Of a stretch of DNA of 64,000 bases, positions 5,563 through 62,256 are shown in pieces. The notes beneath the pieces are model-generated. The model was not told the origin of the DNA and ran no database searches. It was given only the letters and a program-made list of their open reading frames with translations. Source of the DNA: Candidatus Falkowbacteria bacterium (GTDB lineage Bacteria; Patescibacteriota; Patescibacteriia; XYB2-FULL-38-15). The translations under genes and the position numbers were made by a program. The DNA lies in the NCBI GenBank assembly GCA_016214745.1, contig JACRNW010000001.1:67150-131149 (forward strand), given 5' to 3'. Each line of letters opens with the position of its first letter. Position 1 is the stretch's first letter.

Positions 5563-5628
5563 ATTTTTATATTTTATATTTTCTCCGCCATGGGCGGATC
5601 CGCCTCCGGCGGAAATTTAAATTTTAAA

Positions 5629-8132: not shown

Positions 8133-8154
8133 ATTAAAAGATTATACCACTTTT

Positions 8155-8201
8155 ATTTTAAAAAACAAACCCACCTAATTTCTTAAAGAAAAGACGGGTT
8201 T
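8155..8201 (-). terminator. putative rho-independent terminator downstream of the 8221-10101 gene
   Basis: On the minus strand, AAACCC...GGGTTT stem followed by a T-run. Confidence 0.4.
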
Positions 8202-8220
8202 ATTTGATTTATTTAATGGT

Positions 8221-10101: not shown

Positions 10102-10277
10102 AATTTTTAATTAAAATTAAATTAAGATTTAGAAGGCCGCTTTAGGCGACCCCTCTGCTTATATAAGACGAATAATGCGCCTAATTATTTCAATCTCACG
10201 TTAATTTAGTATACCAAAAAATACCGGAACTAAAAAGAGACGGGAACTGCCCATCTCTTTTTTTGCTATAAAATTGG

Positions 10278-12626: not shown

Positions 12627-15054
12627 CGTAGAAAGTGGCAGTAAGGACAGCCGGAGCGGCCAAATCTATCATCGTAGCCGGACCAGTTGTGCCAGCAGGA
12701 TTTAAGGCAGCATCCACAACGCTATTGTTGGTATCATCATTGTCATAGGCAATGGTCGGAGCGGTCGCACTGTTAGTTTCGCCCGCATCGGCTGTGACGG
12801 TAATGTCTTTATCCGTACCAAGACCCGGACTATCAGTTGCAACGGAAAAGGTTGCATTAATATCGCCGCCGACAATTGTCCAATCAACCGCCGTGCTGCC
12901 CGTCATTGTTACGGACTCTGACCAGGTGACGCGAAGTGTATCTATCGCGCCATTCCCATCAATATCGCGATATGAACCACCGATCAAAATTGGCGCAGCG
13001 CCGTCGGTTGAGGCAACAGGCGCCCCATCAGTAGCTATGACATTGCCATAGAGATCTTTTAATTTTGTGTTAACCGTGAGTTGCGTATTTGGCGTCGCAC
13101 CGGTGTCCATTGATCCGCTCTCCGTAAAATTCACCCAAAAAATATTATCATTTGCCGCACCGCCGGTAACATAGGCCTCCCCAGCATAGACGGCCACATC
13201 AAGTGTTATAGTAAAATTATCGTTCAAAGCTTCATCAGTAGTAAAAATAATTCTATCAATCTGGCCGTCGCCGTCAGCATCGGCCGTTACTCTTGAAGTG
13301 ACTACCGGACCCGCTGAGTCAATAGTTTGAGTATTGGCGTTCAAAACCACTGCGTCAGTCGGACCGTCGTTAGTTGAGGACATAAACACACCCACGTCGC
13401 CAGCCGAGCTGGCCACTCCATCAGCGCCCACGTCGTTATAAACCGGAATCTGGAATTTTAATGTTCGGCCATTGGTCGGCGTAATGGTTGTCAAAATTGC
13501 CGCAAAAATTCTTTTTCCGCCAATCGGTATTGCCTGGGTTAGGCCGCTCAACCGCCATTCTTTAGAGTCTCCCGGATTCACAGTCATTGCTCCAAGGCTT
13601 GTATCAACCCCAACCCCCTGAAAAATACCATCTCCGTCGTCAGCCCAAAGAGTAACCGAAGAAATATCAGTTGAGTTGACCGCCGTGCCGGTGTTTTGAA
13701 TACCCATGCCGGCAAGCTGATCGTCTTGCCGGTCCACCACGCTGTTCGGCGCCGCACCGCCGGCCGTTCCTTCGTCTACATAAATACTCTTAGTGGCGTC
13801 AATAGTGCCGGCACCCGTAAATTTACAAACCTGAGTTCCGACGCCGCCGCCATCGCAGTCGGCTACAAAATCAGTTAAGGAATCTCCGGCCGCGACGCCG
13901 CCGCCAACATAAACAGTTACATCAGCCGAAGCGGAGTAAGTAAATTTACCAGCCACGTTTTCAATAAATAAATCATTACCCGGCGTCCAAAGAGCATTGA
14001 CTTCTTTCACCCAACCGGCTGTAGCGGCAACGTTTGTCCCGGTATCGCCATCAGTCGGGGTTCCTAAAACAACGCTCTCCGCAACAATCGCGGTCAAACG
14101 ATTATCACCGGCGCTCACTCCGTTGGCTCCTGAATTATTAATATCGTCATAAACGTATTCCGTGCCTACCGCCCAAATTCCATCACCTCCCGTAACTTTA
14201 CCCTGCGTGAGCGCCTCGATTACTGTGAGGCAATCCGCATCCGCAGGACACGCGACAACAGAACCAACCGCGCCGCCAGCTGTCGCCGTAACTCTCGTAT
14301 CGCCAGTGGTCACCGTGAGACTCGTATCGACGTCAATGTAAACATCTTCAGCGGCATCCCACTGATTTGCCGTGCCGCCAAGCGTTACCGTGGGATTCGT
14401 CAGAGCTGTAAGTGAAAGTGCAATATCACCATTTCCCCCGGCCACTGCGGCTTCGGCGCTTTTATTGGAAATATATCTTAGGTTGGCGTCAGAATCTTGC
14501 CAGACGTTGGTCGGAGTCACCACACTATCGGCTACAACATTATCCCCCCCAACAATATCATACAGGGAATCTCCTCCGCTTAAAGCAGTAGCGCCGGCTG
14601 TATTTGTTGCCGTGCCATCAGCGTCAACCAAAGTATCCGCCGCCGAAGTGTAAACGCTATCCGCATCAAGATCGCGGATGACCGCCTCTGTGTCGCCTCC
14701 TTGGAAACCGGCTGCGCCAGCATCTTTATAACCAACGCCGCTAGTTGTTCCCAAAGCCGGAATCGCGGTTAGCGTACTTCCCTGCCAATAATTAATGCCC
14801 GAATTTTGCATTAAAATATCGGCCGTGTAGGCGCCACTGTTCCAGGCGTCGGGAATAACCACATTCATAACTGCCGTCATACTAGAGGATGGACCAATAG
14901 TTACGGTCGCCGCACCGGTATTTGTGAAATTAACCTGCAACGAAGCCTCGGTGAACAGAATCGGATAAATTAAAAATCCGATCATTGATGCGGCCACCAC
15001 AAAATAGGTCGCCACAAACAAGATCGGAAAACGTTTTCGGATAAACCTTGCCAT
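12415..15054 (-). CDS. N-terminal portion of split locus A. Signal/TM anchor, Thr/Gly/Ala/Asp-rich beta-rich region with DxDxDG Ca-binding-like loops
   Basis: MARFIRKRFPILFVATYFVVAASMIGFLIYPILF signal anchor. Ends ...CNSGAAAANEC then RYLHLYNHHC*, where the paralogous sequence continues DYGFTTTTVK. So it is frameshifted relative to 10278-12626. Confidence 0.65.
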   Translation of the reverse strand: MARFIRKRFPILFVATYFVVAASMIGFLIYPILFTEASLQVNFTNTGAATVTIGPSSSMTAVMNVVIPDAWNSGAYTADILMQNSGINYWQGSTLTAIPALGTTSGVGYKDAGAAGFQGGDTEAVIRDLDADSVYTSAADTLVDADGTATNTAGATALSGGDSLYDIVGGDNVVADSVVTPTNVWQDSDANLRYISNKSAEAAVAGGNGDIALSLTALTNPTVTLGGTANQWDAAEDVYIDVDTSLTVTTGDTRVTATAGGAVGSVVACPADADCLTVIEALTQGKVTGGDGIWAVGTEYVYDDINNSGANGVSAGDNRLTAIVAESVVLGTPTDGDTGTNVAATAGWVKEVNALWTPGNDLFIENVAGKFTYSASADVTVYVGGGVAAGDSLTDFVADCDGGGVGTQVCKFTGAGTIDATKSIYVDEGTAGGAAPNSVVDRQDDQLAGMGIQNTGTAVNSTDISSVTLWADDGDGIFQGVGVDTSLGAMTVNPGDSKEWRLSGLTQAIPIGGKRIFAAILTTITPTNGRTLKFQIPVYNDVGADGVASSAGDVGVFMSSTNDGPTDAVVLNANTQTIDSAGPVVTSRVTADADGDGQIDRIIFTTDEALNDNFTITLDVAVYAGEAYVTGGAANDNIFWVNFTESGSMDTGATPNTQLTVNTKLKDLYGNVIATDGAPVASTDGAAPILIGGSYRDIDGNGAIDTLRVTWSESVTMTGSTAVDWTIVGGDINATFSVATDSPGLGTDKDITVTADAGETNSATAPTIAYDNDDTNNSVVDAALNPAGTTGPATMIDLAAPAVLTATFYDASPATNDGKLDRITVVWSENISAVADGSADWAISSAANFAALTETAVICNSGAAAANECRYLHLYNHHC

Positions 15055-18195: not shown

Positions 18196-19857
18196 CTAAT
18201 AAATCCTGGTCAACGCTGTCTCCTCGGCAGTGATTGGCGTGCCAAGGGTGTAGGATATAGTAGTCGGAGCAGAGAGAACATTGGACAACAGAAACTTGTT
18301 GGCCGTGAAACCAGCAGTGGAGATCAAGCGTCTTTCCGCGCCCTGGATGTAATACTTGTCCGTTGTGCCAGTGTATTGGATCAGAGCACCGGTCGGATGT
18401 TGATCGGTCGTGATGTCGCTTCCGAAAGTGTAATCAACCCAGAAGATGACTGGGACGTCAATAATCTTTGTCGCCCAAGCAGAGCCGTAAAGAGTCGTGG
18501 CGCGAGCTTCGGTCGGAACCCAGCGGAGAAGTCCGCCTGGTTCAACGGCGTAGACTTTGGGATCAGTCTGAATCTTCACAAGCACGGTGCCGGGACGAAC
18601 TTTAACGTTCGCGCCCAAAGCAATACCTTGCAATTGCGAAGCTGTGACGGACTTGATACCGCTAAAGTCAACATACCATGACTTGTAGGTCTTTTCATTT
18701 GGGAAGACATGGCGTTTATTGTCGGAACCGTAATAGTAGACTGAAGTAGAGAGCGGGCTCTTAATTAAGTCACCGACAGAAAGCGCAGTTGGCGTTTCAC
18801 CAGCGCCAGGCGTAGTTGGCGCGCCCACGGCCGTAAAGACAACGGAGACAGTGCTCGTAAGAACCGTGCCGGCGGCAGTAACCGTGTAGGTTGAAGTACC
18901 GGCCGTGCTTGAGTAGACGTTGAAGGTGGCTTTGCCATCCGCGCCGGTTGTGCCGGTTACGGTTGTAATCGTGTCAGATGAACCACGACTTGAAGCAAGA
19001 GTCACGACTTTGCCCGAGAGCGGCACGCTCGCGGCGTCCTTCACGGTCACGGTGATAATTGAGAAACTCGTGCCATTAGCCACGACTGAAGTTGGGGAAG
19101 CTACGATGGTGGAGTTCGCGACTGAAACCGTGGGTGTTGTGTAGGTAATAGCGAAATTGGAATCTGATATATCATTCAATGAGCCGGCCACTGCTTTTAC
19201 TTTGACAGTGCTGGAAGTGATATTCGGCACGGTCCAAGCGTAAGAGCCATCATTCGTTTCATTCGTAGCAATGGTGTATGGGAAATTAATACCGGAATCA
19301 AGCGAATAGTAGAGATTCACGGTGTCGGTCACACCCGTAGCAGACCAAGTGATGTTGTGGCTTGAACCACCAGCCCAAGATTCGCCGCCGTTTGGAGCGG
19401 TGACTGTCATTGAAGCCGGCAGCCCTCCTCCGCCTCCACCGCCGCCGCTAGAAGCCGCGACGGTCGTAAAGGTGTAAGGATCAGCTACTATGGCTGAATT
19501 ATCAAGAGTGCTGTCTCCTGCGGCCGCCGAATTAATTGATCCTTGGACCAAATCAATTGTATAGATTTGCAGACCAGCCCAAGCATCATGCGAAGCGTAA
19601 GTGACCACCGTGTTGCCAGAAGACCAAACAGCTGAACCGAGGGCAAAAGTAGGAGATCTGCCGAGAGTAGTTGTTGTGATATCAGTCGTAGTCATCGCTT
19701 CCGAGAAAGTGATAGAGAAGCTGGCGTCCAAGGCAACGCTTGTCGCGCCGTCGGCCGGAGAGGTGGAAGCAACAACCGGATTTGCACCGTCAGTGAAGGC
19801 CGGAGAGGAAGCAGAAGTAATGGTCTTACTCGCCGCGGTGTTTGTACCATCAGTCAC
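18196..19857 (-). CDS. C-terminal portion of split locus C. Module M x1, a poly-Gly linker, a PNGGE domain, a Big-like domain and the conserved C-terminal domain (type I)
   Basis: The track starts it at a GTG inside module M (VTDGTNTAASK...). The frame stays open upstream to CYTFTTTTVKTNVGDL inside the 145-bp repeat. No signal peptide, so the N-terminus is supplied by 19884-21434. Confidence 0.65.
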   Translation of the reverse strand: MTDGTNTAASKTITSASSPAFTDGANPVVASTSPADGATSVALDASFSITFSEAMTTTDITTTTLGRSPTFALGSAVWSSGNTVVTYASHDAWAGLQIYTIDLVQGSINSAAAGDSTLDNSAIVADPYTFTTVAASSGGGGGGGGLPASMTVTAPNGGESWAGGSSHNITWSATGVTDTVNLYYSLDSGINFPYTIATNETNDGSYAWTVPNITSSTVKVKAVAGSLNDISDSNFAITYTTPTVSVANSTIVASPTSVVANGTSFSIITVTVKDAASVPLSGKVVTLASSRGSSDTITTVTGTTGADGKATFNVYSSTAGTSTYTVTAAGTVLTSTVSVVFTAVGAPTTPGAGETPTALSVGDLIKSPLSTSVYYYGSDNKRHVFPNEKTYKSWYVDFSGIKSVTASQLQGIALGANVKVRPGTVLVKIQTDPKVYAVEPGGLLRWVPTEARATTLYGSAWATKIIDVPVIFWVDYTFGSDITTDQHPTGALIQYTGTTDKYYIQGAERRLISTAGFTANKFLLSNVLSAPTTISYTLGTPITAEETALTRIY

Positions 19858-19930
19858 GGAAGTACCGGCAGTATAGGCAAGACTTAGATCACCGACGTTT
19901 GTTTTAACAGTGGTGGTTGTAAAGGTGTAA
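19785..19930. repeat. ~145-bp repeat copy 2, identical to 12296-12440. Spans the junction of the two locus-C ORFs
   Basis: Direct comparison. Divergence from copy 1 begins exactly at gttac(ttac)acc. Copy 1 has two TTAC units and copy 2 has one. Confidence 0.85.
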
Positions 19931-21434
19931 CAGCCACGGTTTCAGCATCAGCCATTTCGTTGTTGGCCGGAGAAGTGTCGTCAATCTGACCGGCTGCGGC
20001 AACCGTGTAAGTCGGAGTCACTGTGATGGCGGTGTTAGATGTGGCAGAAACAGTGATGTTTAAATTTAAAATGGCGCTAGCGGTGCCCGCGTAATTAGCG
20101 TTGTCAATAGTAGCCGTGCCGGATGAAGCGACCAGTGTAATGGCCGGGAAGCCATCACCAGCGTTGCCATCAGTCACGTCAGAACTTTCGCTAAAGGTCA
20201 AGACAAGGCGGTCAACCGTACCGTCAGAATTGTTGTCTCCAGTAAGAGCGGAAATGAAAGCCGGAGCGGCGCCATCAGCGCCAACCACGGTCTCGCCATT
20301 GGCCATTTCGTTCACCGTGTCAGAGATGCTGCCCGCGCCAGCTGTGGCATAGGTCGGATCAATCGTGATCGCGGTGTTGCCAGTGGCTGAAACGGAAATA
20401 GTGTAGGTTAAAGTGGTAGTTCCGACCGCGCCATAGACACCGGCGGTGACAGTGGCCGTGCCAGAAGAAGCAACCAAAGTGATATCATCGTCAGTGCCGC
20501 CATCAGTGACAGTCACTGGTTCTGAGAAGGTCATGACTAAGCGGTCAACCGTACCGTCAGAATTGTTGTCTCCAGTAAGAGCGGAAATGAAAGCCGGAGC
20601 GGCGCCGTCGGTGCCAGCTACAGACGCTGTGTTGGCCATTTCGTTGTTGGCCGGGGCGACATCATCAATCTGACCGGCTGGAGCAGTGGTATAGGTTGGA
20701 GTCACGGTTAAGGCCGTATTAGCTGTGACAGAAGTCGTGATGTTTAAAGTCAGGGTAGTCGTAGCGGCGGCGGCGTAGTCAGCGTTGTCAATCGTCGCGG
20801 TGCCAGATGAGGCGGCTAAAGTGATGGCCGGGAAACCGTCGCCAGCGTTGCCGTCAGTCACGTCAGAGCTTTCACTGAAGGTCAAGACAAGGCGATCAAC
20901 TGTGCCGTCGGAGTTAGCGTCGCCGGTAAGAGCGGAAATGAAAGCGGGTTTAGCGCCATCGGCACCAACCACGGTTGCAAGGTTGGCCATTTCAGTGCTC
21001 GTCGCCGTATCTGCAATCAGGCCAGCTGGAGCAGTAGCGTAGGTTGGGTCAATAGTAATGGCAGTGTTGCCTGTTGCGCTCACGGTAATATTTAATGTTA
21101 AAGTTGGAACATTTAGCGCTCCGTAATCAGCGTTGTCAATCGTCGCGGTGCCGGATGAGGCGGCTAAAGTGATAGCCGGGAAACCGTCGCCAGCGTTGCC
21201 GTCAGTGATGTCAACGTTTTCCGAAAAAGTGATTACAAGCCGGTCAACAGTTCCATCCGCGTTATTGTCGACCGTGACAGCTGAACTCATTGTGGGCTGG
21301 GCCGCCAAAGCTGGCAAAACTCCTGGATTTTGAGGGGTTGGCATGGTAAAGGTTGCTACCAAGCCAATCACTAAAAATATTACCACCGACCATGGCAATA
21401 CTTTGAAAAACCCTTTTTTGATCTTTTCTGCCAT
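19884..21434 (-). CDS. N-terminal portion of split locus C. Signal anchor plus four ~114-aa tandem repeats
   Basis: MAEKIKKGFFKVLPWSVVIFLVIGLV is near-identical to the locus B N-terminus. Repeats of PAFISALTGD(A/N)NSDGTVDRLV(L/M)TFSE...GNAGDGFPAITL(A/V)ASSGTATIDNA. Ends ...ETVAVTPLQPPLLKQTSVI*, which is a frameshifted read of the module-M repeat. Confidence 0.65.
   Translation of the reverse strand: MAEKIKKGFFKVLPWSVVIFLVIGLVATFTMPTPQNPGVLPALAAQPTMSSAVTVDNNADGTVDRLVITFSENVDITDGNAGDGFPAITLAASSGTATIDNADYGALNVPTLTLNITVSATGNTAITIDPTYATAPAGLIADTATSTEMANLATVVGADGAKPAFISALTGDANSDGTVDRLVLTFSESSDVTDGNAGDGFPAITLAASSGTATIDNADYAAAATTTLTLNITTSVTANTALTVTPTYTTAPAGQIDDVAPANNEMANTASVAGTDGAAPAFISALTGDNNSDGTVDRLVMTFSEPVTVTDGGTDDDITLVASSGTATVTAGVYGAVGTTTLTYTISVSATGNTAITIDPTYATAGAGSISDTVNEMANGETVVGADGAAPAFISALTGDNNSDGTVDRLVLTFSESSDVTDGNAGDGFPAITLVASSGTATIDNANYAGTASAILNLNITVSATSNTAITVTPTYTVAAAGQIDDTSPANNEMADAETVAVTPLQPPLLKQTSVI
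19990..21340. repeat. four tandem ~342-bp coding repeats
   Basis: The spurious plus-strand ORFs at 20101, 20446, 20785 and 21133 all start MSIVAVPDEA.../MTVAVPEEA..., which reveals the period. The protein repeats were aligned by eye. Confidence 0.65.
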
Positions 21435-41627: not shown

Positions 41628-41691
41628 GAATAAAAAAAGCGGGCGGGACGCTCTACGTGTCACTTTCTCAACACGTAAAACGCCCGCCCGC
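41628..41691 (-). terminator. rho-independent terminator with a very GC-rich stem at the low-GC/high-GC boundary
   Basis: Minus strand: GCGGGCGGGCGTTTTACGTGTTGAGAAAGTGACACGTAGAGCGTCCCGCCCGC then TTTTTTTATT. Confidence 0.6.
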
Positions 41692-42436
41692 AGCCCCAGT
41701 TCAGGGGCAGCGGATCAGCTGGACCAACTTGCATCGGCCCATTTGACCACATCTCGCACCCCGTCTGCTGGGGTGCAGGGATTTCCGGGGAGGGAGAAAC
41801 GGAAACCCCCACACTCTCCTCCTCGTCCGCCATGTGATGGCGGACTTACGAATTGTCCCTCCGGGAGGTTGCTACGGACGCTGGTTCCGCAGGTTGCAGC
41901 CGCCCAATCGGTTGTCGACGCTCCAGAATGCATCCGGAACGCCGCCAAGCGTGGCGCTGTGAGAACCCTGCAGAGTGCCGGGCGGGTAGGGACCAACGCA
42001 GCCCCAGAACGGCGGCGCAAGTTCGGCCACCGTCTGGTACTCAATGTACCAACCCGGATCGAGGGCCACGCTGAAGCAAACGGAGCTCACGCTCGTCGCC
42101 TCAACCAAGACGCTCCAGGGACCGGTGCAGACAAGACGGCCGTCAAGACCGTCAGTCGGACCCATGGAGATCGTCGTGCCGACGCAGCCTTCGATCGCGA
42201 TCCTCGGAGCGACGGCGCCCGCGTCCCAGCAGTGAGTGTACCTGCCGGGGCCGGTGCAGCCGTCGTCTACGACCGTGTCGCAGTCATCATCCGTCCCGTT
42301 GTCGCAGATCTCGGGGCGGACCACGGAGCAGCTCGTACTGCATCCGTTGTCGATGAAGCCGTCACAGTTGTCGTCCAACCCGTTGCCGCAGATTTCCGGC
42401 GGCACGGGTCCGCAGGTCCCGCAGGAGTTGAGTAAC

Positions 42437-42574
42437 CCTTCGTCGATCGAGCCGTTGCAGTCGTTGTCCACGCCGTCGCAGGTCTCGGGCGAACCCGCGA
42501 TCTCGCCGGCGCAGACGCCCCAGCGACCACCGCTGCAGGTCTGGGTACCACGGGCGCAAGCGCCCATGTCCGTC
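42437..42574. repeat. 138-bp repeat, identical to 43158-43296 (Cys-rich repeat unit)
   Basis: Direct comparison. Encodes ...TDMGACARGTQTCSGGRWGVCAGEIAGSPETCDGVDNDC in the true frame. Confidence 0.8.
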
Positions 42575-43157
42575 CGGCTGAGTGGTGCCGTCGACGCAGG
42601 AGCAACCCTCGTCGATGTCGCCGTCGCAGTCGTTGTCGATCGTGTCGCAGGATTCGGAAGCGGCCGGAGCGACGTAGCCGACGCAGACACCCCAGTAACG
42701 TCCGTCCGTGCACGTCTCGAGCCCACTCACGCAGGCCCCGAGGTCCGTCCCACAAGCTCGGGTTGCCCCGGGCGTGCAGATGCAGTCCTCATTGACGAGA
42801 CCGTTGCAGTTCTCGTCCAACGTGCCGGTGCAAACTTCCGGGGCGGGTCCGACGAAACCGGTGCAAGCGTTCCAGCGGCCCATGACGCAAGTCTGGGTTC
42901 CGCGAGAGCACTCGCCCGTGTCGTCGCCGCAGGGCTGGGCCGTACCGTTCACGCAAGAACAGCCCTCGTCCACTTCGGTGTCGCAGTCGTTGTCCAGCGT
43001 GTCACAGGTCTCGGGGGCAGGAGGCAGGAAGCCCACGCCGCCGCAGTCGGACCACTGTCCGGCTCCGAACCCGTTGTTCAAACAGGTCCGGGTCCCCATG
43101 ACGCACTCGCCGAGGTCGGTACCGCACGACTCGGAAACGCCGATGGTGCAGGTGCAC

Positions 43158-43296
43158 CCTTCGTCGATCGAGCCGTTGCAGTCGTTGTCCACGCCGTCGC
43201 AGGTCTCGGGCGAACCCGCGATCTCGCCGGCGCAGACGCCCCAGCGACCACCGCTGCAGGTCTGGGTACCACGGGCGCAAGCGCCCATGTCCGTCC
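43158..43296. repeat. 138-bp repeat, second copy
   Basis: Identical to 42437-42574. Confidence 0.8.
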
Positions 43297-44766
43297 TCCG
43301 CGAGGAGCGGATCACAGACCTCGGTGTCGGGGGCGATACCCGTGCAGTCGCTCCAGAATCCGCCAATGCAGAACTGGGCACCGAGCGTGCACTCACCCAT
43401 CTCCTCGCCGCAGAGGCGAGAAGAAGTTCCGACGCACTCGCAGCCTTCGTCGATCGTGGTGTCGCAATCGTTATCCACGCCGTCGCAGGTTTCGGAGGCG
43501 GGACCCGTGCCAAGGCACAGTCCCCAGTGACCGCCCATGCAATACTGGAGGCCGGTGGCGCAGGCGCCGATGTCCGTACCGCAGACGCGACCGTCGCCGG
43601 ACCGACATTCGCAGTCTTCGTCGATCGAGCCGTCGCAGTCGTTGTCCGAGCCGTCGCAGTACTCCGGGGTCACGACGCCGCAGGAGCCGCACGCATTGAG
43701 CAGCCCCTCGTCGACGCGACCGTCGCAGTTGTCGTCGAAACCGTTGCAGATCTCGGCCGACGGAAAGTGCTGGGGCTGACATGGGCCGTAACCCGAGTCA
43801 TCCGCCAGACAGAACATCCGACCCTCGGCACAAGCGCCGAGGAATCCCGGAATCATGCAGTCGATCGGCAGGCCGGTGTGATCGCAGGCGCAGCTCTCGT
43901 CGACTCGTCCGTCGCAGTTGTCGTCCACGCGGTTGCCGCAGACTTCCGGATTCTCATCCGGCCGAGTCGTGGGCTCGCAGACGTCGGAGTAACCCGATCC
44001 GTCCGCGAGACACCGCATCTCGCCGACCGCGCAGACGCCGGGAATGAGGGTGTTGCAGGGAATGACGTCGCCCAGGGGGCAAACGCCCTCGCCGCACACA
44101 CCGTCTTCGTCGGTCTCGCCGTCGCAATCGTTGTCCACGCCGTCGCAGGTCTCGGTCGTGCCGGCGCAATCCGGCGTGCCGGCGCAGTGGCCGGTCTCGT
44201 CGCAGTACATGCCGAGCGAACAGTCGATGAACGCATTGCAGATCGCGCGGCACTCGCCGCGGAAGCACTCTCCGACTTCGCAGTCGGAGTCCGAGGTACA
44301 CTCGTACCCCGCGTAGAAGGTGGTGCCCCCGCCGCCGCAGCCGAAGCTCGCGGCGCCGAGCACCGTGGTACACACGCACACCAAGATCCAGTTCGTCCAG
44401 TTCCTCATGTTCTCCCTTTCCATCTTCCTGTCCCTCCTCTTGTGCGGTGGAGCCGCACGCGGCAGATCCGCCGCCAAAAACCGAACTACCAACGTCAATA
44501 CCGTGCCTTGTTTACGGCACGGCAAACTCCTCCGCACGGATGTGCGAAGGAGAGATTACCAAAATTCCTAATTGTCAACGAACAGCAGTTTTTGACCTTT
44601 TATCTTTATTTCACAACAAGAAAGAGGGTTTTTATCCCCCTCCTTCTCGGTCAAAAACCGCACACTATAATTTAACATAAACTACAAATTTGTCAAGAGG
44701 ATAAAACAAAAACAGAGGATTTGACCCCTGCTTTGTTAAAACGTTTTATTCTTTATTTTTTTACTG

Positions 44767-46085: not shown

Positions 46086-46469
46086 TGGTGGAGATGGCGG
46101 GAATTGAACCCGCGTCTAGAAGTCTTCGACAAAACGAATCTACAAGTTTAGCTAAATTAAATTTTTAAAACACAAGGTATAAATTTAGCAAAATCCTTGT
46201 GCCCGAGGCCTATTAATTTTCAAAAATTTCTCTAAGCCAAAGAAATTTTCTATCTCGGTTATGACACCGGGACCCGCCTACCGAGAGTCGGCGGCCGATG
46301 TGCCGCGGCTAGTTAAGCCGTGGCAGGAGCAAAGCTCGGAACGCGAAAAGCGCTCTTTACCTTGTTAAATAAGTTTGCACTTATTGATTTTGCCAAAGTT
46401 TTGCGAGATTGTGGCAATACTCGACTTGCTCATTTTGTAAAGAACTCCTATCGAGGCCTGTCATCCCCA
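46086..46469 (-). ncRNA. ssrA: tmRNA (transfer-messenger RNA)
   Basis: 3' end ...GACGCGGGTTCAATTCCCGCCATCTCCACCA (T-arm plus acceptor with encoded CCA). A candidate 5' end GGGGATGACAGGCCTCGATAGG pairs with the 3' acceptor strand. Directly follows smpB. About 384 nt. I could not resolve the tag reading frame. Confidence 0.6.
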
Positions 46470-51732: not shown

Positions 51733-52265
51733 TAAATGTCTGATAAAAATAGTTCGTTTTAAACTAAAGGCAAATTGCGTTTTTCCGCTTGAATAAAGGC
51801 CTTTATAGATCCCCGAAGCTGTTTGGCTTGGCAAATTTTAGTGGTAATTGGCTTATATTGAGAAGCCAGATTTACCCTCGTTCTTTATCAATCACCAGGC
51901 CAAACGACTCTGGGGTTCTATGGCAGTACTTTTGCGGCGAACCACAGTTTAAAGAGTAAAAGTTATAAAAAAGTTGAAATGATAGAGAGTGCTTTCTACA
52001 TTAGTCCACTTCTCTTAAACTGCGGTTTCCTGCAAAGGATGGTACTTTGACAAATTGAATAACAACGGGCTTTAGCTCTCCGCCGACGAAGCGGATTGAT
52101 GCGCGCCTGATGAAATAGAGGGATAAAATCCTCTTTCTCAGGCTTAGGCCTGTTGACGATATATAAAACAAAACCCCCGGAGCGTGGTTGTTCCGGAGGT
52201 TACAAGTTTGGACACCATAACCGGCTTCGCGAGACGCGGGGCCAACGAAGGGAAGGAGTTCCTAG

Positions 52266-53090
52266 ATGACGAAGACCTTCGCGACGATGTTCGTGTTCGC
52301 GATGCTCTGCGTCCCGGCGATCGCCGAGGCGCAGCAGCAACTGGCCGATGGCGAGGCGCGTGCGCTCGTTTGCGGACCCGGAGAAATCCAGGTCTGCACC
52401 GAGACGCAGGCCGACGGCTCGGCTCCCCGGGTCATGTACCTGAGGGGAAGCCCGGTCATCGACTGCGTAGTTCGTTCCGAGACCGGAATCCAGCTCGAAT
52501 GTGTGAAATGGGAAGACGCCTGCAAGCGGGAATCCTGCGACAGGCGCGGCGGAAACTGGCACTGGGATGAGAGCTCGTGTCACTGCGACTACGAACGGCC
52601 GAGGGAAAGCCCTCCGCCGTCCGCGCCGCCAGCTCAGCCTCCGGGCCCGACGACGCCTCCGGTTCAACCCGGCCCGACGCCGACCTGCCCGGACTGCAAC
52701 GTGAGCCTCACGGTCTGTCCGAACGAGGAGATCGCGAGACTCGCGAACGAGCTTGCGCCTCTGGCGCAGGTCGCTCCCGAGACCTGGATCGTCCGGTCCG
52801 ACACGGATGAACTGAGGACGCGAGTCCTCTACATCCGCGATCGGGCGGCGGTGTGCGGCGAAGATAGAATCTTCGTCGACGCCGAGCGAGTACTGGCGGC
52901 AATGACGCCGCCGGAACCGAGTACGCTCCCATCGGGACCGCCGATGTCGAGCTACGAGGACGAGGAGAACTTCTGCACCAATTCGTTCGGCGGCGTACTG
53001 GTGTGCATCGTGCTGCCGACCGTGGCGGCCGGTGCCGCCATCTTCCTCGGTGTCTGGTTTGGCACCGAGTGGGAAGCGACCCAGGAGTAG
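52266..53090 (+). CDS. secreted Cys-containing Pro-rich protein with a C-terminal TM anchor
   Basis: GGAAGGAG RBS. Signal peptide MTKTFATMFVFAMLCVPAIAEA. PPPSAPPAQPPGPTTPPVQPGPTP linker. C-terminal TM helix. Confidence 0.55.
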   Translation: MTKTFATMFVFAMLCVPAIAEAQQQLADGEARALVCGPGEIQVCTETQADGSAPRVMYLRGSPVIDCVVRSETGIQLECVKWEDACKRESCDRRGGNWHWDESSCHCDYERPRESPPPSAPPAQPPGPTTPPVQPGPTPTCPDCNVSLTVCPNEEIARLANELAPLAQVAPETWIVRSDTDELRTRVLYIRDRAAVCGEDRIFVDAERVLAAMTPPEPSTLPSGPPMSSYEDEENFCTNSFGGVLVCIVLPTVAAGAAIFLGVWFGTEWEATQE

Positions 53091-53172
53091 TGTTCGTCAA
53101 CCCGGGGTCGGCGAGGCGGAAGCCCGTCGACCCCACAGAAGCTTCTGCCCCGAGAGGGCAGGGAGGGATGAG

Positions 53173-54183
53173 ATGAAGAACGTGAACCTGTTCGGGCTGT
53201 TCGTGTGCGTGATGGTGCTGGCGTCCTGTCAGGACGTCCAGCTCCCCGATCCGATCCACGTGTGTGAGGACAGCAACAACGACGACGTTTGCGACGGCGA
53301 CCAGGACGGCGATTCCGTCCCCTGGCAGTACGACAACTGCCCGCGGGCCGACAACCCCGACCAGGCCGACTGCGACGGCGACGGGATCGGCGACGCCTGC
53401 GACGACTTCGACAACCGGGATGCCGGCGCCGATGCGGACGCGGATGCGGATGCGGATGCGGATGCGGACGACTACGAGGGCGACGAGCCCGGCGAGTGTA
53501 CGGACGACGCGGACAACGACCGCGATGGTCGCTTCGACTGCGACGACCCGGGCTGCGTGAGCGATCCGGCGTGCGTCGCGGCTCCGTTCTGCGGCGATCA
53601 CGCCTGCAACGACAGCGAGACCTGCGCGAGCTGCCCGGCCGACTGCGGCATCTGCTCGGCAACCTGCGGCGACTGGGTATGCAACGGTTCCGAGACGTGC
53701 GCGACCTGCGCTCACGACTGCGGCACCTGCCCGGCGCCGATCTGCGGTGACGGCATGTGCAACGGCACCGAAACCTGCGAGACGTGCGCGTCCGACTGCA
53801 CCGGTTGCGCCGGCGACATCTTCGTCACGATCCGCGTGACCTCGTCTGACGCCTACCCCGCCGAAATTCATGTCTACTTCGCCGCTGATCCCCGGGATGT
53901 GGATGGCACCGACTCGGGCATGGCTCCCTACCAGACCAGTTTGACCCAGGCTCAGGCCTGCGGCCGAGTGGAAGGGGTGGAGGTCAGCGCCCGTCAGTTC
54001 TCGACGGCCGACCGCCCGTGGTACGGAACGCTCGGGATCCTAGGTCGTCTGACGATCCAGGTGAACGGCGTCGCCTACCCGGATGCGGCTGCTGGTCGTG
54101 CGGCTCTGCCGCTGATCGACCAGCCGTGGGGCGACCCCAACATCCATATCTCCCGGGCAGTTCTCCACTGCCCCGGTTCGTAG
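53173..54183 (+). CDS. lipoprotein with thrombospondin type-3 Ca-binding repeats and four CGDxxCNGxETCxxCxxDCGxC Cys-rich repeats
   Basis: Start MKNVNLFGLFVCVMVLASC (LASC lipobox). DGDQDGDSVPWQYDNCPRADNPDQADCDGDGIGDACD is a TSP3 repeat. Contains a (DA)n tract. Confidence 0.62.
   Translation: MKNVNLFGLFVCVMVLASCQDVQLPDPIHVCEDSNNDDVCDGDQDGDSVPWQYDNCPRADNPDQADCDGDGIGDACDDFDNRDAGADADADADADADADDYEGDEPGECTDDADNDRDGRFDCDDPGCVSDPACVAAPFCGDHACNDSETCASCPADCGICSATCGDWVCNGSETCATCAHDCGTCPAPICGDGMCNGTETCETCASDCTGCAGDIFVTIRVTSSDAYPAEIHVYFAADPRDVDGTDSGMAPYQTSLTQAQACGRVEGVEVSARQFSTADRPWYGTLGILGRLTIQVNGVAYPDAAAGRAALPLIDQPWGDPNIHISRAVLHCPGS
53431..53472. repeat. hexanucleotide microsatellite (GATGCG/GACGCG)x7 encoding (DA)n
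   Basis: gatgcggacgcggatgcggatgcggatgcggatgcggacgac. Confidence 0.85.
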
Positions 54184-54295
54184 ACCAACCAACAACTTAC
54201 CTGTTTAGTCCCTTGTCCCGACGCAAGTCGGAACAATAACAGGCAAGTCCAACAACCACAGACGCGACCTAGGGCGGTTGCGACTGCTTCGACAA

Positions 54296-54333
54296 GGCCA
54301 GCTTTCCTCCGGATTGCTGGCCTTCTTTTTTTA
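54296..54333 (+). terminator. rho-independent terminator
   Basis: GGCCAGCtttcctccggattGCTGGCC then TTCTTTTTTTATT. Confidence 0.6.
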
Positions 54334-54452
54334 TTATCAAGCGAGTGAGACCCCGGCAAGGCGGGACGAGCGAGCGCAGATAACACGGAGTATTTAAAAG
54401 TAATATTTTTAATTTAATCTCGTTTTAATACAAACTGGCCAAAACCAGTGTT

Positions 54453-54494
54453 TTGTCACACAACCTTGACAAATCCGGCATTCCGTTGTAATCT
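54453..54494 (+). promoter_or_regulatory. sigma-70-type promoter (TTGACA-17-TAATCT) overlapping the palindrome TTGTCAcacaaccTTGACAA
   Basis: -35 at 54466-54471. A second hairpin CTGGccaaaaCCAG sits just upstream. Confidence 0.45.
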
Positions 54495-54592
54495 ATAATG
54501 TTAGTTCATTGAACAACCCTTGCCGCAAGGCGAGGTAAAAATATAGTAAGTAGTTCACCTAAACTAAACATGCCGTCAAGGAGGGAAACAAG

Positions 54593-56311
54593 ATGGCAGA
54601 GAAGAAGAGTGGTGGCCTGCACTCTCCGATCGACGGCCGGCTAATCGCCGGGCGTTACAAGGTCGTAGATCCCGAACCTATCGGCCGGGGCGGCATGGGT
54701 CTCGTCTATCGCGGTTTCGACATCCGCACGAAGAGATCCGTTGCCATCAAGATTCTGCACGAGCAGTTCCACGGTATGCCCGACGTGGTTGCTCGGTTCC
54801 GCACGGAAACCGATGCGGTGAACCGTGTCGGCCACGAAGGCATTGTTGTCATCCTGGACTGTGCCCAGCCGGAAGAAACTCCGGTCTTCTTCGTCATGGA
54901 GTACCTGGACGGGAAAACGCTCGCCCAAGTGCTCGACGAGAATGGCCAGAGAGGCAAGCCGCTTCACGTCCAGCACATCCGCTACATCGGCTTGAAGCTT
55001 CTCGAGACGCTGGAAGCGGTCCACGAAAGCGGAATTATCCATCGCGACCTGAAGCCGGAAAACGTCTTCATCCTCGGGCTGCTAAGCAAGCGATATCGCG
55101 TCAAGCTTCTCGACTTCGGGATCGCGAAGTTCAAGGAAGCCGATCCCAAGCTGACTCAGGTGGGCACGATAGTGGGCACGCCCCTTTACATGTCACCTGA
55201 ACAGTGTCGGGGCCTCCCCGTCGACTACCGAACCGACCTCTACGCGATCGGCTGCATCCTCTACGAGATGGCAACCGGCCGACCGCCTTTCGTGGGCGAC
55301 CTGAGCGAAGTCCAACAGGGTCACCTCTCTCGTCTCCCGGAAGCTCCGAACGATCTGAACGGGGAAATCCCTCCGGCGCTCAACGCGGTCATCATGACGG
55401 CACTAGCTAAGGAACCGGACAACCGATTCCGCGACGCCGAAACCATGCGCGAAGCGCTCGAAGACGCCGTCCCCGAGGACAAGATGTTCTGGCGGGACAG
55501 CCGGCCGCCTTCGCCGGTGAACGGCAGCAGGGTGCTCGCCACTCCGCCGCGCATTCCAACCGCGATGGAGGATCAGCCAACGTCAGAGCGGCTCGACTCG
55601 TCTAAAACCCCGACTCGTCTGCTCGCTGACAAGCGGCCGCCGGCCGGGATCGCCTTGGCGAAAACCATGACTCCGGCTGACCTGAAACGGGCAGTTGATG
55701 AGGAGACGGCGCACCAGTTCGCCAAGAACTTCGGCGTCTGGATCCTGAAGCCCTCGAGTCGGGCGGCAGTGATCGCGATCGGCAGTACCCTCCTCATCCT
55801 CACCATCGTGTTCGTTCTTCTCGCGGCTTACCCGCCCAACACCGGCAAGCGCGCAAGAACGGCCGACGCTGGCGTCGAGGTCAGCACGACGGCGGTTGTC
55901 GTTTCCGAGAAGGAAACTCCTCCGCAGCCGAGCGGCCAGCCCGACGTCATCGTCCTGCCAGTTCCGGTTCCAGTTCCTCGGGACGACGCGACAACCGACG
56001 AGCCGAACGAAGTCGTCGAGATGGACGCAGTAGAAACTGCGGCCAACGCTGGCCCACCGGACGGCTACGCCGAACTACTCGCGGCGGCGGAACACGCCAG
56101 GAACTGGCGCACGGCCGTCGGAAGACTCGAGGAGGCAACAGAACTCTGGCCTGAAGGACCAGATGCCTGGAAAGAACTGGGCAACGTCTTCATGATGCAT
56201 GGGGAAATTCGGAAGGCCAGAGAAGCCTTCCGGACATGCCTCGACCTTCTGCCTCCGGACGCGTTCGTCCAGCGGGCACAAGTGGAGGGACGACTCAGGG
56301 GCCTGCAATAG
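54593..56311 (+). CDS. Hanks-type serine/threonine protein kinase with a C-terminal TM segment and a TPR-like tail
   Basis: GGAGGG RBS. GRGGMGLVYRG (P-loop), VAIK, HRDLKPENVFI, DFGIAKF, GTPLYMSPEQ. A TM helix near residue 400. Confidence 0.85.
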   Translation: MAEKKSGGLHSPIDGRLIAGRYKVVDPEPIGRGGMGLVYRGFDIRTKRSVAIKILHEQFHGMPDVVARFRTETDAVNRVGHEGIVVILDCAQPEETPVFFVMEYLDGKTLAQVLDENGQRGKPLHVQHIRYIGLKLLETLEAVHESGIIHRDLKPENVFILGLLSKRYRVKLLDFGIAKFKEADPKLTQVGTIVGTPLYMSPEQCRGLPVDYRTDLYAIGCILYEMATGRPPFVGDLSEVQQGHLSRLPEAPNDLNGEIPPALNAVIMTALAKEPDNRFRDAETMREALEDAVPEDKMFWRDSRPPSPVNGSRVLATPPRIPTAMEDQPTSERLDSSKTPTRLLADKRPPAGIALAKTMTPADLKRAVDEETAHQFAKNFGVWILKPSSRAAVIAIGSTLLILTIVFVLLAAYPPNTGKRARTADAGVEVSTTAVVVSEKETPPQPSGQPDVIVLPVPVPVPRDDATTDEPNEVVEMDAVETAANAGPPDGYAELLAAAEHARNWRTAVGRLEEATELWPEGPDAWKELGNVFMMHGEIRKAREAFRTCLDLLPPDAFVQRAQVEGRLRGLQ

Positions 56312-56316
56312 GCCCT

Positions 56317-56368
56317 GGGGCAACCACGCAAGATGTCAAACATCAAGCGTGGCTGCCCCTCTTTTTTA
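56317..56368 (+). terminator. rho-independent terminator
   Basis: GGGGCAaccacgcaagatgtcaaacatcaagcgtggcTGCCCC then TCTTTTTTATTTT. Confidence 0.6.
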
Positions 56369-56383
56369 TTTTATAAAAAAACC

Positions 56384-56412
56384 TTGACAAAAAAATACTT
56401 TTGTGGTTAGAT
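56384..56412 (+). promoter_or_regulatory. putative promoter (CCTTGACA-17-TTAGAT)
   Basis: -35 TTGACA at 56384-56389. The -10 is weak. Confidence 0.35.
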
Positions 56413-56474
56413 ATAAAGTGCTCTAAATGGGCGCAAGGGGGAGGCACGGGGCCTCCCTTAGATTTTAGGAGGGA

Positions 56475-57563
56475 ATGGAGATGAGGTTCATCACCCTGAT
56501 CGTGGCGGTTCTTTTCGCCCAGAACGCGTTTGCCCAGACGTCGGAGTCGACCGAGCAGACGGAGCAGTCCGCTGCGCCGGTCATCCTCGGCGAAGCCGGC
56601 AACGCGGCTCTCACGAGCTGCCTCGAAGCGGACGACGGGACCCAGTGCTGCACCGACTACGGCGACTGCGTGCAGAATTTGGGAGACAACTCCGAGCAGT
56701 GCGCTGCGGTCGCCCGACTGTGCGGGCACCAGGATCTCGACGCCGCCATGCGGGAAGGCTGCCAGCAGCGGAACGCGATCGTACAGGGCAGCGAATGCGC
56801 CTGCGCCGCGGGCTTGAGCTGGAACAACGAAAGCGACAAGGTTTGCTGCACAGCAAACCCCGCCACCTACGAACGCCGGCGAAACGCCTGCGAGCATTCC
56901 GGCGGAACCTACCACTGCAACAGCCGGGGCGGATGGTGCGGCTGCCCACTCGGCATGAGCCACCCGATCGAAGAGGATGGCGATGTCGACTACTCCTCCT
57001 GCACCGGCGAAGCGGTGAACCGCGAACGGCTCCAGGCGATGCGAGACAACATCGCGACTCTTACTGCCGAGGTCGAGGAAGCCGGACAACAGATCGCCGC
57101 CCTCCAAGCCGAGCGTGACGCCCTTCGAGCGCAGCTCGACCAGACTCTCAGTCAGCTGGCCGAGCTGGACAACCTCGAGGACACGGTCGGCGAGATGGAA
57201 CAACGGCTCGCCGAGATGGATGCCGAACTCTCGTTCTTGCGTCACCTGCGCGACCAGTACGAGGAATTCATCGCTCGGCAGGCGCAGACGATCGCCGATC
57301 TTGGCGGAATTCCTCCTCTCCCTCCGGGCATTCCGGAAGAGGATGAACCCCTCCCGGGAACAGCGGCGGCGGTCGCGGAAGCGGCAGGCGGAAGCCGGCC
57401 CGGACCGATGGAGCCACTACCCCCTCCCGAAGAGGAAGAGGGCAACTGGTGCTCCGAAAACGGCTGGGCATGCGCCGGTATCATCATCGGCGCAGCAGCC
57501 GCATTGGCCGGGGCAACCGTCGGGATCGTGGAGGCGACCCGCGACATTCAGGTCACTCAGTAG
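56475..57563 (+). CDS. secreted Cys-rich protein with a long coiled coil and a C-terminal TM anchor
   Basis: Signal peptide MEMRFITLIVAVLFAQNAFA. 16 Cys in the N-terminal domain. Heptad-like region LQAMRDNIATLTAEVEEAGQQIAALQAERDALRAQLDQ... C-terminal GIIIGAAAALAGATVGIV. Confidence 0.55.
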   Translation: MEMRFITLIVAVLFAQNAFAQTSESTEQTEQSAAPVILGEAGNAALTSCLEADDGTQCCTDYGDCVQNLGDNSEQCAAVARLCGHQDLDAAMREGCQQRNAIVQGSECACAAGLSWNNESDKVCCTANPATYERRRNACEHSGGTYHCNSRGGWCGCPLGMSHPIEEDGDVDYSSCTGEAVNRERLQAMRDNIATLTAEVEEAGQQIAALQAERDALRAQLDQTLSQLAELDNLEDTVGEMEQRLAEMDAELSFLRHLRDQYEEFIARQAQTIADLGGIPPLPPGIPEEDEPLPGTAAAVAEAAGGSRPGPMEPLPPPEEEEGNWCSENGWACAGIIIGAAAALAGATVGIVEATRDIQVTQ

Positions 57564-57592
57564 TTCTCGGGATTTCCTCCACCCGAGGACCA

Positions 57593-57641
57593 GGCCGACG
57601 TTTTGAGACAATCGTGTCTCGGACGTCGGCCTTTTTTTATC
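57593..57641 (+). terminator. rho-independent terminator
   Basis: GGCCGACGttttgagacaatcgtgtctcggaCGTCGGCC then TTTTTTTT. Confidence 0.65.
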
Positions 57642-57642
57642 T

Positions 57643-57684
57643 GTCAACTCCCCTTGACAAAACTTAAAAAATATGGTATATTTA
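57643..57684 (+). promoter_or_regulatory. sigma-70-type promoter (TTGACA-17-TATATT) overlapping the palindrome CTGTCAActccccTTGACAa
   Basis: -35 at 57656-57661, -10 at 57679-57684. The element closely matches the 51691 element. Confidence 0.5.
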
Positions 57685-57877
57685 CTTGTTCTGAAACGAA
57701 TGGAAAACAGTATCTACATAAACAAAATTGGATCCTGTAGTAGTTTGGTTTGATACCTGGGTTGCCTCCTCCTCAACCTCTTGGTTTTCAAATCAAACTA
57801 CTCAAGGACCCAACAAAATTGGTCCAAGCAACTCGGGATGGGTCCCGGGTTGAGAGAGTTTGGAAAGGAAAGCGCTG

Positions 57878-58984
57878 ATGGCGAATGGCAACAAGGTCTC
57901 AAGCTCCCTCCAGATTACCGGCCTGAAGCCCGACATCACGGAAGAGAAAATCCGTAGGGCTGTCGGCGAAATCGTCGGAGTGGGGCAGGACGGGATCTCC
58001 AACGTGGATATCCGGCGACGCGAAGATGGCAGGCCCGAGGAGCGAGGCGCGAATGCCGTCGTCGCCTTCAAGGATGTCGCAACGGCGACGGTGGCGAAGG
58101 CGGGACTTGGCGCAGGCAAGCTGTGCAGAATCCCCGACCTGAATCCCGACCGCGAGATCATGGCCGACTTCTACTTTCCTCCGCGGCCGCGCGACGAGAG
58201 GCCGCCGGCCACACCCCCACCCGCCGCACCCTCGATCGATCCGAACCAGCTTACGGCCATTGTGGCCGAACTCGAGGCCAGGCTCAAGGCCGACGCCGGA
58301 TTTCTGGCGAAGGTCAGGGGCAAGGACGGCGTAGCGCCGACGAAGGACGAGATCGTCGCGGCCCTCCGGTCCTTCCTGGTCACCGACCTCAAGGCTGCTC
58401 TGGCCCCGGTGCTGAAGGTTGACCTCAAGAACGACCCGACCTTCCAGGACCTGATCAAGGGCACTCCCGGCAAGGACGGCCCCGCGAAGGATGAAGTCAT
58501 CGCGGCGCTCAAGGCCGACGCCTCCTTCAAGGCGGAAGTCAAGGGCGAGAAGGGCGATGACGCACCCCGGTGGCCTCACTGGGTCTTGGTGGTTTTTGCC
58601 ACCTTGGCGTTCATCGTCATGCTCGGCCACCTCGTCTGCGGAAGCAGCGGCGACCAGGGTCCGCAGGGCGTCCAGGGCCAGGTCGGTCCCCAAGGTCCGC
58701 AAGGGCCCAAGGGCCCGATCGGACCGCGTGGTCCCGAAGGCTCCCAGGGTCCGCAGGGCGAACCCGGAGCCGCGGCGACCACAACGGTCGCACCGGCGCC
58801 GAGCGCGGAGCCGCCCGTCGAACCGGCGGCCACGGCGCCGCCCAGCCAGGCAACGCCGACGGGACGGCCCAACATCACGGAAGTGGATGGGCGCGAGCTC
58901 ATCCGCCACCAGCTGGACGACGTGTCCGTCCTATTCCGTGAGATCGATCGGAGGACCCGGCAACTGGAGGAAGCGCGCCAGTAG
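57878..58984 (+). CDS. membrane-anchored collagen-like (13 x G-X-Y) protein with GKDG...DEIVAAL repeats
   Basis: ATG at 57878 (MANGNK). TM helix [59 protein letters not shown]. Repeated GKDG(V/P)A(P/K)(T)KDE(I/V)(V/I)AAL(R/K) units resemble phage tail-fibre-like repeats. Confidence 0.58.
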
Positions 58985-59010
58985 ACGCGAAGGAGTATCT
59001 ACTGATCCAT

Positions 59011-62062: not shown

Positions 62063-62180
62063 GGATTTGAAGACTCCTCGGTGCAATCCTCGGCGCCGCA
62101 AAAAGGATTTAAGGGAGAGTATTCTCTCCAATCTGCTCAATTTGACAAACCAATCGCAAAAGCGATTGCTTTGTCAAAAC

Positions 62181-62256
62181 GGGTCCGAAGGGATTTGAAC
62201 CCTCGATCTTCTCCGTGACAGGGAGACGTGTTAGACCGGGCTACACCACGGACCCA
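62181..62256 (-). tRNA. tRNA-Asp (anticodon GTC)
   Basis: GGGTCCGTGGTGTAGCCCGGTCTAACACGTCTCCCTGTCACGGAGAAGATCGAGGGTTCAAATCCCTTCGGACCCG. 7-bp acceptor, GTGT/ACAC D stem, TCTCC/GGAGA anticodon stem with loop CTGTCAC, T-arm GAGGG-TTCAAAT-CCCTT. CCA is not encoded. Confidence 0.85.

Follow-up and report, generated by a model that had tools for sequence, protein, structure and literature searches.

The DNA considered here (hereafter the window) is a stretch of 64,000 nucleotides (nt) of contig JACRNW010000001.1, from a metagenome-assembled genome (MAG) of Candidatus Falkowbacteria, and our subject is the gene that occupies a GC-rich block between the ribosomal-protein gene rplT and a radical-SAM gene. 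Measured over 300-nt intervals, GC content is approximately 0.41-0.48 up to 41.75 kb, 0.64-0.68 between 41.75 and 44.45 kb and 0.38-0.43 beyond, an abrupt change that the initial annotation of this DNA had correctly described. GC content at third codon positions (GC3) is approximately 0.82 for the gene in the block and 0.33-0.54 for the host genes of the window. This gene is the sole open reading frame (ORF) of the block, and in the deposited sequence it is spread over three minus-strand ORFs (43002-44537, 42362-43513 and 41872-42726, exactly the coordinates first assigned to them), each shifted by +1 relative to the preceding one. All three pieces score above the Pfam gathering cut-off of 27 bits for PF11617 (Cu-binding_MopE), with 86.5, 76.8 and 49.7 bits, and the ORF obtained by repairing the frame breaks, as described below, contains 12 PF11617 motifs (C-x-D-G-x-D-N-D-C-D-G-x-x-D-E) and 102 cysteines; the earlier description of a secreted protein built from a dozen or more such repeats stands. 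The motif columns are close to invariant among 80 homologues, and along the protein body (12% Cys, 16% Gly and 11% Asp) the motifs alternate with modules of the form CGTDxGxCxxGxxxCxxGxWGxC. The gene is a further member of the PF11617 repeat-protein family, already present in GenBank as fragments.

Taking the elements of our explanation jointly, we think it probable that 41.63-44.70 kb is one native transcription unit on the minus strand, composed of an AT-rich promoter, a conserved leader, a gene of approximately 853 codons, a structured 3′ untranslated region (UTR) and a terminator. The promoter-like site (44667..44696) lies in AT-rich DNA and consists of TTGACA, a spacer of 16-18 nt and TAAATT/AATTAT; it comes directly after the rplT terminator (44709-44734, minus strand), where a TTGACA promoter had been placed initially, and its sequence is kept in the leader of an orthologous locus from another assembly (L090). 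The 5′ leader of ~240 nt (44424..44666) likewise shows nucleotide conservation with L090 (positions 1-570); its promoter-proximal part has a GC content of 0.32, while its final ~137 nt, which contain hairpins, have a GC content of 0.59. The L090 leader is longer and has extra sequence, and we note that the leader holds a second TTGACA as well as GC-rich hairpins. A Shine-Dalgarno sequence (AGGAGGGA) lies ahead of the ATG at 44423.

The coding sequence begins with piece A (43297..44423, minus strand; 375 amino acids, aa), whose signal peptide bears a conserved Cys (GAASFG-C) and which also includes a unique Cys-rich N-terminal region and five PF11617 motifs. It continues through piece B (42576..43294, minus strand; ~240 aa), with four motifs and CGTDxGxC modules, and piece C (41872..42573, minus strand; 233 aa and the stop codon), with the last three motifs and a C-terminal domain of ~120 aa (41875-42255) that has very few homologues. 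Downstream lies a GC-rich 3′ UTR with several hairpins (41630..41871, minus strand), which ends, immediately before the promoter of the radical-SAM gene, in an intrinsic terminator (~41636-41691, minus strand); this hairpin and its T-run are the GC-rich terminator that the initial annotation had seen as closing the block. The ~230-nt 3′ UTR is conserved at the nucleotide level in three other loci (L013, L004 and L006), and 11 of its 72 predicted pairs show compensatory changes among four sequences. It is possible, judging from this pattern, that 41630-41871 represents an unannotated structured RNA. A small ORF in this region was ruled out by indels, and Rfam gave no match in either the 5′ leader or the 3′ UTR.

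The two frame breaks coincide with an exact direct repeat of 141 nt, present in only two copies in the window, at 43156-43296 (copy 1, encoding TDMGACARGTQTCSGGRWGVCAGEIAGSPETCDGVDNDCNGSIDEG) and 42435-42575 (copy 2), both on the minus strand; the copies are 100% identical, and none would be expected by chance. That the breaks are tied to identical repeats had been recognized before, although the repeat length had been given as 138 nt. Each break sits precisely at the high-coordinate edge of one copy (43296/43297 and 42575/42576), which is the 5′ edge in the sense of the gene, and the other (3′) edges of both copies are in frame. Compared with the orthologue in L001, the window is missing 5 nt (CTGCG) immediately 5′ of copy 2; these nucleotides complete a Pro codon and start Cys-Gly codons. 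With 5 nt inserted at the 5′ edge of each copy, a single ORF of 853 aa results, from 44423 to 41872, and the Cys-Gly that precedes TDxGxC in every module is restored. L004 and L013 also cross the second junction in frame ('...GTTQPCGTDMG...'), and the repeats are spaced at 726 nt in L001 and at 721 nt in the window, which is again 5 nt less. The proposal that some 25 aa are missing at the first junction could not be established: at this point L003 is longer by 20 residues and the modules of L001 come in another order, and the 5-nt repair suffices for the frame.

The same pattern recurs elsewhere on the scaffold. A second, unrelated exact direct repeat of 141 nt is found at 12301-12441 and 19790-19930, and at each of its copies a large surface-protein ORF changes frame at the high-coordinate edge; small edge corrections join 12415-15054 and 10278-12626 into an ORF of 1590 aa, and 19884-21434 and 18196-19857 into one of 1078 aa (minus strand). 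A frame break is therefore found at the same-side edge of all four copies of the two 141-nt repeat pairs. In the relatives, contigs end in the gene (L001, L002, L003/L009 and L010-L012) or begin in it (L004-L006), the 886-kb 'chromosome' of L013 has two N-gaps inside it, and the final 127 nt of the L001 contig are an exact copy of a stretch 726 nt upstream. The intact orthologue in L090 has an exact internal repeat of 236 nt with a spacing of 558 nt (1395 and 1953), which indicates that long perfect repeats are a genuine feature of this gene family. The largest k-mer used by MEGAHIT in its default settings is 141, and its output minimum is 200 nt; the usual largest k-mer of SPAdes is 127.

We consider it very likely that the frame split is an artefact of scaffold joining. 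In the mechanism that we envisage, the scaffold would have been built from MEGAHIT contigs (largest default k of 141) that were scaffolded afterwards. A true repeat of 146 nt would give a unitig under the 200-nt output minimum, which would be dropped; the contig before it would close with the first 141-mer of the repeat, and the contig after it would open with the last. If the join were then treated as a k-long overlap, 5 nt (CTGCG) would be lost at the same edge of both copies, leaving copies of exactly 141 nt. Default MEGAHIT assembly followed by the scaffolding function of IDBA-UD was the route taken in a groundwater study from which Falkowbacteria MAGs were deposited (PMC7906910), and the window may derive from that project. 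The initial annotation had offered either repeat-mediated deletion or assembly collapse; an assembly problem is indeed the best explanation, but one that takes the form of a join error at copies of k-mer length, not of a collapse.

The gene could instead be a genuine pseudogene, produced by repeat-mediated deletions or by a 5-nt deletion spread between the copies by gene conversion. The frameshifts are present in the deposited sequence and in its GenBank annotation, where the frame-B product, including its nonsense tail, is MBI5071379.1, a 'hypothetical protein' encoded on a contig of 145,105 bp in a Candidatus Falkowbacteria MAG, probably of BioProject PRJNA640378; two identical copies are what conversion would give; and the orthologue in L006 carries an independent frameshift. 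However, a repeat length of exactly 141 nt is found twice, in unrelated genes of one scaffold, with four of four breaks at the same-side edge, and it is unlikely that two independent lesions would end at the identical base. Furthermore, the 473 codons downstream of the breaks contain no additional stops or indels, and the ratio of nonsynonymous to synonymous substitution (dN/dS) against L013 is 0.10 in piece B and 0.15 in piece C, so that constraint there is not relaxed. We therefore regard a pseudogene as unlikely.

Several observations nevertheless weigh against a join artefact. The artefact is deduced from the sequence and not seen in reads, and in a strict de Bruijn graph every junction k-mer is present in the reads, which means that the error must arise at a scaffolding or merging step. 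The four join errors are unequal, since two are of -5 nt and the other two need different lengths (alternatives are, for example, -4 and -2). L006 (JGI 3300029288, Ga0265297_10000039) has a 4-nt frameshift of its own in a non-repeat part of the gene, an insertion at ~330-360 (GCAC next to TGCAC) in the unique C-terminal domain, and real decay of the gene does therefore occur within the clade.

We also note that L001 and L006 apparently come from the same metagenome and probably each carry one half of a single gene. Metagenome scans gave no matches to the flank of the first junction and one match to the pattern of the second, which we take to be that of L001 itself, and they returned no contig of the same species. 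Two other sources of the split were considered and rejected. Programmed +1 frameshifting finds no slippery site, and its shifted product would lack the Cys-Gly that is conserved in every module; a template and variable repeat of a diversity-generating retroelement is at odds with copies that are 100% identical, and there is no reverse-transcriptase-like ORF at 40.5-46 kb. If the frame split is an artefact of joining, then the deposited genome divides one surface-protein gene of ~853 codons into three 'hypothetical proteins', and no fewer than two further large genes of this scaffold are divided likewise. The combination of an exact 141-nt repeat and a frame break at one edge would provide a simple flag for join errors in MAGs that come from such pipelines.

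The gene has close counterparts in related genomes. The database proteins closest to piece A are entries named 'MopE-related protein, partial' from Patescibacteria MAGs (P0001-P0003), which are 64-80% identical to it, whereas the best matches outside the Patescibacteria, in Myxococcota and others, are 32-48% identical, with the similarity driven by the motif. The gene lies directly after infC-rpmI-rplT in L001, L002, L003/L009 and L010-L013, and in the first three of these (L001, L002 and L003) the wider gene order is that of the window and the gene has a GC3 of 0.77-0.82 in a background of ~0.38 GC. It lies directly before the radical SAM/SPASM and Wzy_C genes in L004, L005, L006, L013 and L090, and glycosyltransferases come next in L004, L005, L006 and L090. 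When one genome per species was scanned with rplT, L009-L013 (rplT identity 89-93%) showed the gene in the same setting; judged by rplT, the closest named relatives are Falkowbacteria, Uhrbacteria, Kuenenbacteria and Magasanikbacteria. Orthologues with a GC3 of 0.76-0.85 are thus present between rplT and the radical-SAM gene in at least seven independent assemblies of related Patescibacteria. The presence of the gene is not patchy, as it is found at the same locus in all seven of the closest genomes, and L090 encodes an intact orthologue of 793 aa (P0125) with the same architecture. Across eight genomes, the protein distances between pairs, taken over the N-terminal 300 residues encoded by the gene, correlate with those of six host genes (r = 0.90), which argues for vertical descent, and the dN/dS of the gene is ~0.27. 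Together these observations indicate that the gene has been inherited vertically through a Falkowbacteria-like clade of the candidate phyla radiation (CPR). An ancient transfer into the ancestor of this clade is possible.

The initial annotation had instead read the block as a horizontal acquisition. A recent version of this, in which DNA from a high-GC donor such as a member of the Myxococcota entered the genome between rplT and the radical-SAM gene and is still to ameliorate, would account for the strong contrast in composition; PF11617 proteins are common in Myxococcota among the database matches, and a second GC-rich block of the window (island 2, described below) encodes a Ser/Thr kinase with TPR repeats and collagen-like and TSP3-like proteins that are typical of such donors. 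Against it stand the presence of the gene at the same locus in every close relative sampled, its co-divergence with host genes, the low identity of the best matches outside the CPR and the small number of proteins that contain the C-terminal domain. There is also no mobility signature: no integrase, tRNA gene or border repeat was found at the block, and an ORF scan of the block shows the repeat gene only. We therefore regard recent acquisition as very improbable, and the compositional evidence presented below points the same way. The abrupt change in GC content would also fit a chimeric contig or binning artefact, in which foreign high-GC DNA had been joined into a low-GC contig, and this change is the only feature in its favor. 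Both borders, between rplT and the gene and between the gene and the radical-SAM gene, recur in independent assemblies that come from different samples and assemblers; this excludes a chimeric join at 41.7 or 44.57 kb, which the initial annotation had named as the finding that would overturn its reading, and leaves us giving almost no credence to an artefact of this kind.

The tRNA-type genes of the window are limited to a tmRNA gene at 46.1 kb (46086-46468, minus strand; tag ANLFNKVKSAFRVPSFAPATA), which lies between infC and the smpB-side genes, and a tRNA-Asp(GTC) gene at 62.2 kb (62179-62256, minus strand). In more distant genomes (L015, L017, L018 and L020; rplT 68-72% identical, host GC ~0.5) rplT is followed by unrelated GC-rich genes with a GC3 of 0.8-0.93, which encode low-complexity membrane proteins rich in Pro, Glu and Ala and proteins resembling response regulators. 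It seems that the site after rplT, or this class of gene, is prone to high GC across a wide clade. We note that L012, L013, L017-L019 and others have a CPR-type gene order yet are deposited as 'uncultured Gammaproteobacteria bacterium' (from binchicken co-assemblies), and look mislabelled.

Island 2 (52200-59000) consists of five genes with a GC3 of 0.74-0.84, which encode two secreted Cys-rich proteins (one of them with a sub-threshold match to TSP_3), the Ser/Thr kinase with TPR repeats, a coiled-coil protein and a collagen-repeat protein; the first two of these genes have orthologues in L001, L003 and L013. In a more distant relative (L007, GCA_028710985.1) there is one GC-rich block, at 4261-11958, between a Wzz-like gene and Wzy_C, and it contains a gene for a coiled-coil protein and three PF11617 genes with a GC3 of 0.79-0.82. 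The two GC-rich blocks of the window may therefore represent one ancestral block that was split by rearrangement of the segment from rplT to the Wzz gene.

With regard to composition, GC3 is 0.76-0.85 in eight of eight orthologues and 0.29-0.57 in host genes, and the genes in the window form a bimodal distribution of GC3 that is empty between 0.54 and 0.74. At third positions of conserved codons, the synonymous mismatch between lineages in strong versus weak bases (G+C versus A+T) reaches 69-95% of the fully randomized value, and 69-87% in host genes. Under a two-state, non-stationary model fitted by maximum likelihood, the equilibrium GC is 0.79-0.88 for the island genes and 0.27-0.36 for host genes; imposing 0.4 on the island genes lowers the log-likelihood by 9.8 units with the gene studied here alone (188 sites) and by 13.6 units with three of them (347 sites). 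The high GC content of the gene therefore looks like an equilibrium near a GC3 of 0.8 and not like the trace of a recent transfer, in which synonymous sites would not be expected to approach saturation with GC3 unchanged. Since synonymous sites are near saturation and GC3 has not changed, a gene-specific force would have to hold GC high. Candidates for what keeps it there are selection acting on the composition of codons or RNA, GC-biased conversion limited to these genes, and repeated replacement from GC-rich partners.

The high GC content is not confined to the repeats: GC3 is 0.93 for the codons of the signal peptide, 0.90 for those of the unique N-terminal region and 0.77 for those of the C-terminal domain, and intragenic conversion among the repeats was accordingly rejected as its sole cause. 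Nor is it forced by the protein, as the GC3 of a PF11617 gene from Dojkabacteria is 0.30, in line with its genome. The adjacent ribosomal-protein genes have a GC3 of ~0.4, which makes high expression or translational selection an unlikely cause. In the gene studied here GC-richness begins within the conserved leader and stops at the terminator, with the promoter remaining AT-rich, and the spacers of island 2 are host-like (GC 0.44-0.45, with minima of 0.32-0.38), as are those in L007. An AT-rich, host-like promoter and host-like spacers between island genes are further points against recent acquisition. Two considerations temper the equilibrium argument. It draws on 120-350 synonymous sites, a two-state model that makes no provision for rate heterogeneity, and repeat-rich alignments; and polarization by parsimony gave 42 singletons from strong to weak bases and 9 from weak to strong, a ratio that is uninformative because ~5:1 is expected at equilibrium with long branches. 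Comparison of synonymous divergence (dS) between island and host genes by the NG86/JC method was not used as evidence, because the proportion of synonymous differences saturates at a much lower level at a GC3 of 0.8 and the protein is rich in two-fold codons.

In the last of these candidate explanations, repeated replacement, GC-rich partner organisms that co-speciate with these symbionts would time and again supply new copies in place of the resident gene. This would mimic co-divergence and would explain a stable high GC content with no need for gene-specific selection, and the unrelated GC-rich genes found after rplT in distant relatives hint at a hot spot. However, searches of 5.8 billion clustered proteins and of 1.84 billion representative proteins returned no orthologue from a GC-rich donor; the AT-rich promoter, the leader and the structured 3′ UTR are conserved along with the gene; and the spacers of island 2, as noted, are host-like. 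On balance we find repeated replacement improbable, though less so than recent acquisition.

Returning to an equilibrium held by a gene-specific force, we put forward, tentatively and at slightly less than even confidence, that in the Falkowbacteria-like CPR clade one subset of the genes is kept at a GC3 of ~0.8, and the rest of the genome, including the spacers, at ~0.4, in a stable, gene-specific compositional dimorphism. The subset, in the same tentative proposal, would comprise the putative lipoprotein gene studied here and the neighboring kinase, coiled-coil, collagen-like and Cys-rich genes. Such a dimorphism would be maintained by selection on codons or RNA (for example, if expression were controlled through rare codons or highly structured mRNAs) or by GC-biased conversion confined to these genes. 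A literature search found no description of a stable compositional dimorphism of this kind in bacteria, and what may be new here is a stable split in composition between probable host-contact genes and the remaining genome. If the GC3 equilibrium holds, it would offer a natural test that separates selection or biased conversion from mutation pressure within one small genome, in genes that are likely to be the host-contact genes of an episymbiont.

The likeliest function of the protein, as suggested by its sequence, would be that of a rigid, disulfide-locked, acidic, calcium-binding rod on the cell surface, which would bring the C-terminal domain into contact with a host cell or a substrate and so could act as an adhesin. 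The end of the signal peptide ('[SN][FL]G-C-G') is kept in five aligned orthologues and reads SFS-C in P0125; the lipobox is atypical, and the protein may be lipid-anchored through this invariant Cys. The C-terminal domain has 12 matches at E <= 0.001 among the 1.84 billion representative proteins, of which the top two are orthologues at the same locus, and the N-terminal region likewise has very few homologues. An AlphaFold model of piece A has a mean predicted local distance difference test (pLDDT) score of 71.6 overall and of 70-90 in the repeat region, where it shows short beta-hairpins; a model of piece C, made with a three-sequence alignment, has a pLDDT of 31 and is unusable. The proposed role as a rod-like adhesin is drawn from the sequence; the models gave no significant fold match, and a Foldseek search of the piece A model against the PDB returned nothing at E < 1. 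NCBIfam gave no match. A phmmer search with 543 aa of the protein against all PDB chain sequences, which presumably include the crystallized MopE* copper domain, also gave no match at E <= 1, and with no sequence similarity to solved structures copper binding is not to be assumed.

The protein shares with the PF11617 'MopE-related protein' family the same motif of ~30 residues (a C.DGVDNNCDGQVD-type consensus; PMC3278476), here in 12 copies, and, as in the Myxococcota and the other matches, it is secreted, Cys-rich and built of multiple repeats. It differs from that family in that the gene occupies a fixed locus in a CPR clade with a GC3 some 40 points above that of its genome, and in that the N-terminal region and the C-terminal domain have very few homologues. 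With regard to MopE proper, the copper-binding protein of Methylococcus capsulatus, no homology to the MopE* domain was detected for our protein among PDB chains at E <= 1, where we take that domain to be represented. The Cys-rich core of teneurins has been aligned by others to the MopE motif (PMC3278476). Like the Cys-rich region of teneurins and thrombospondin type 3 repeats, our protein has D/N-rich 'DxDNDxDG' loops framed by disulfides. The likeness is at the level of the motif only, however, with no significant structural match in Foldseek, and calcium binding by the loops of our protein is a prediction.

The split of the gene resembles the known signatures of de Bruijn assembly, which include exact repeats or overlaps of length k, here the two 141-nt pairs of the window and the 127-nt end of the L001 contig, and contigs named 'k141_' end in the same gene. 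It differs from the usual de Bruijn breaks in that the scaffold of the window runs through the repeat, with small indels at the joins. Finally, the block resembles classical genomic islands, in which a sharp compositional anomaly encodes surface or interaction proteins, and invites interpretation under the model of amelioration of acquired DNA put forward by Lawrence and Ochman. Unlike such islands, however, it has neither a mobility signature nor a patchy distribution and co-diverges with the genome, and its GC3 has not drifted towards that of the host despite near-saturated synonymous change, while the spacers of island 2 are host-like. Detection of transfer by composition would call this block a fresh island, and here that call would be wrong.

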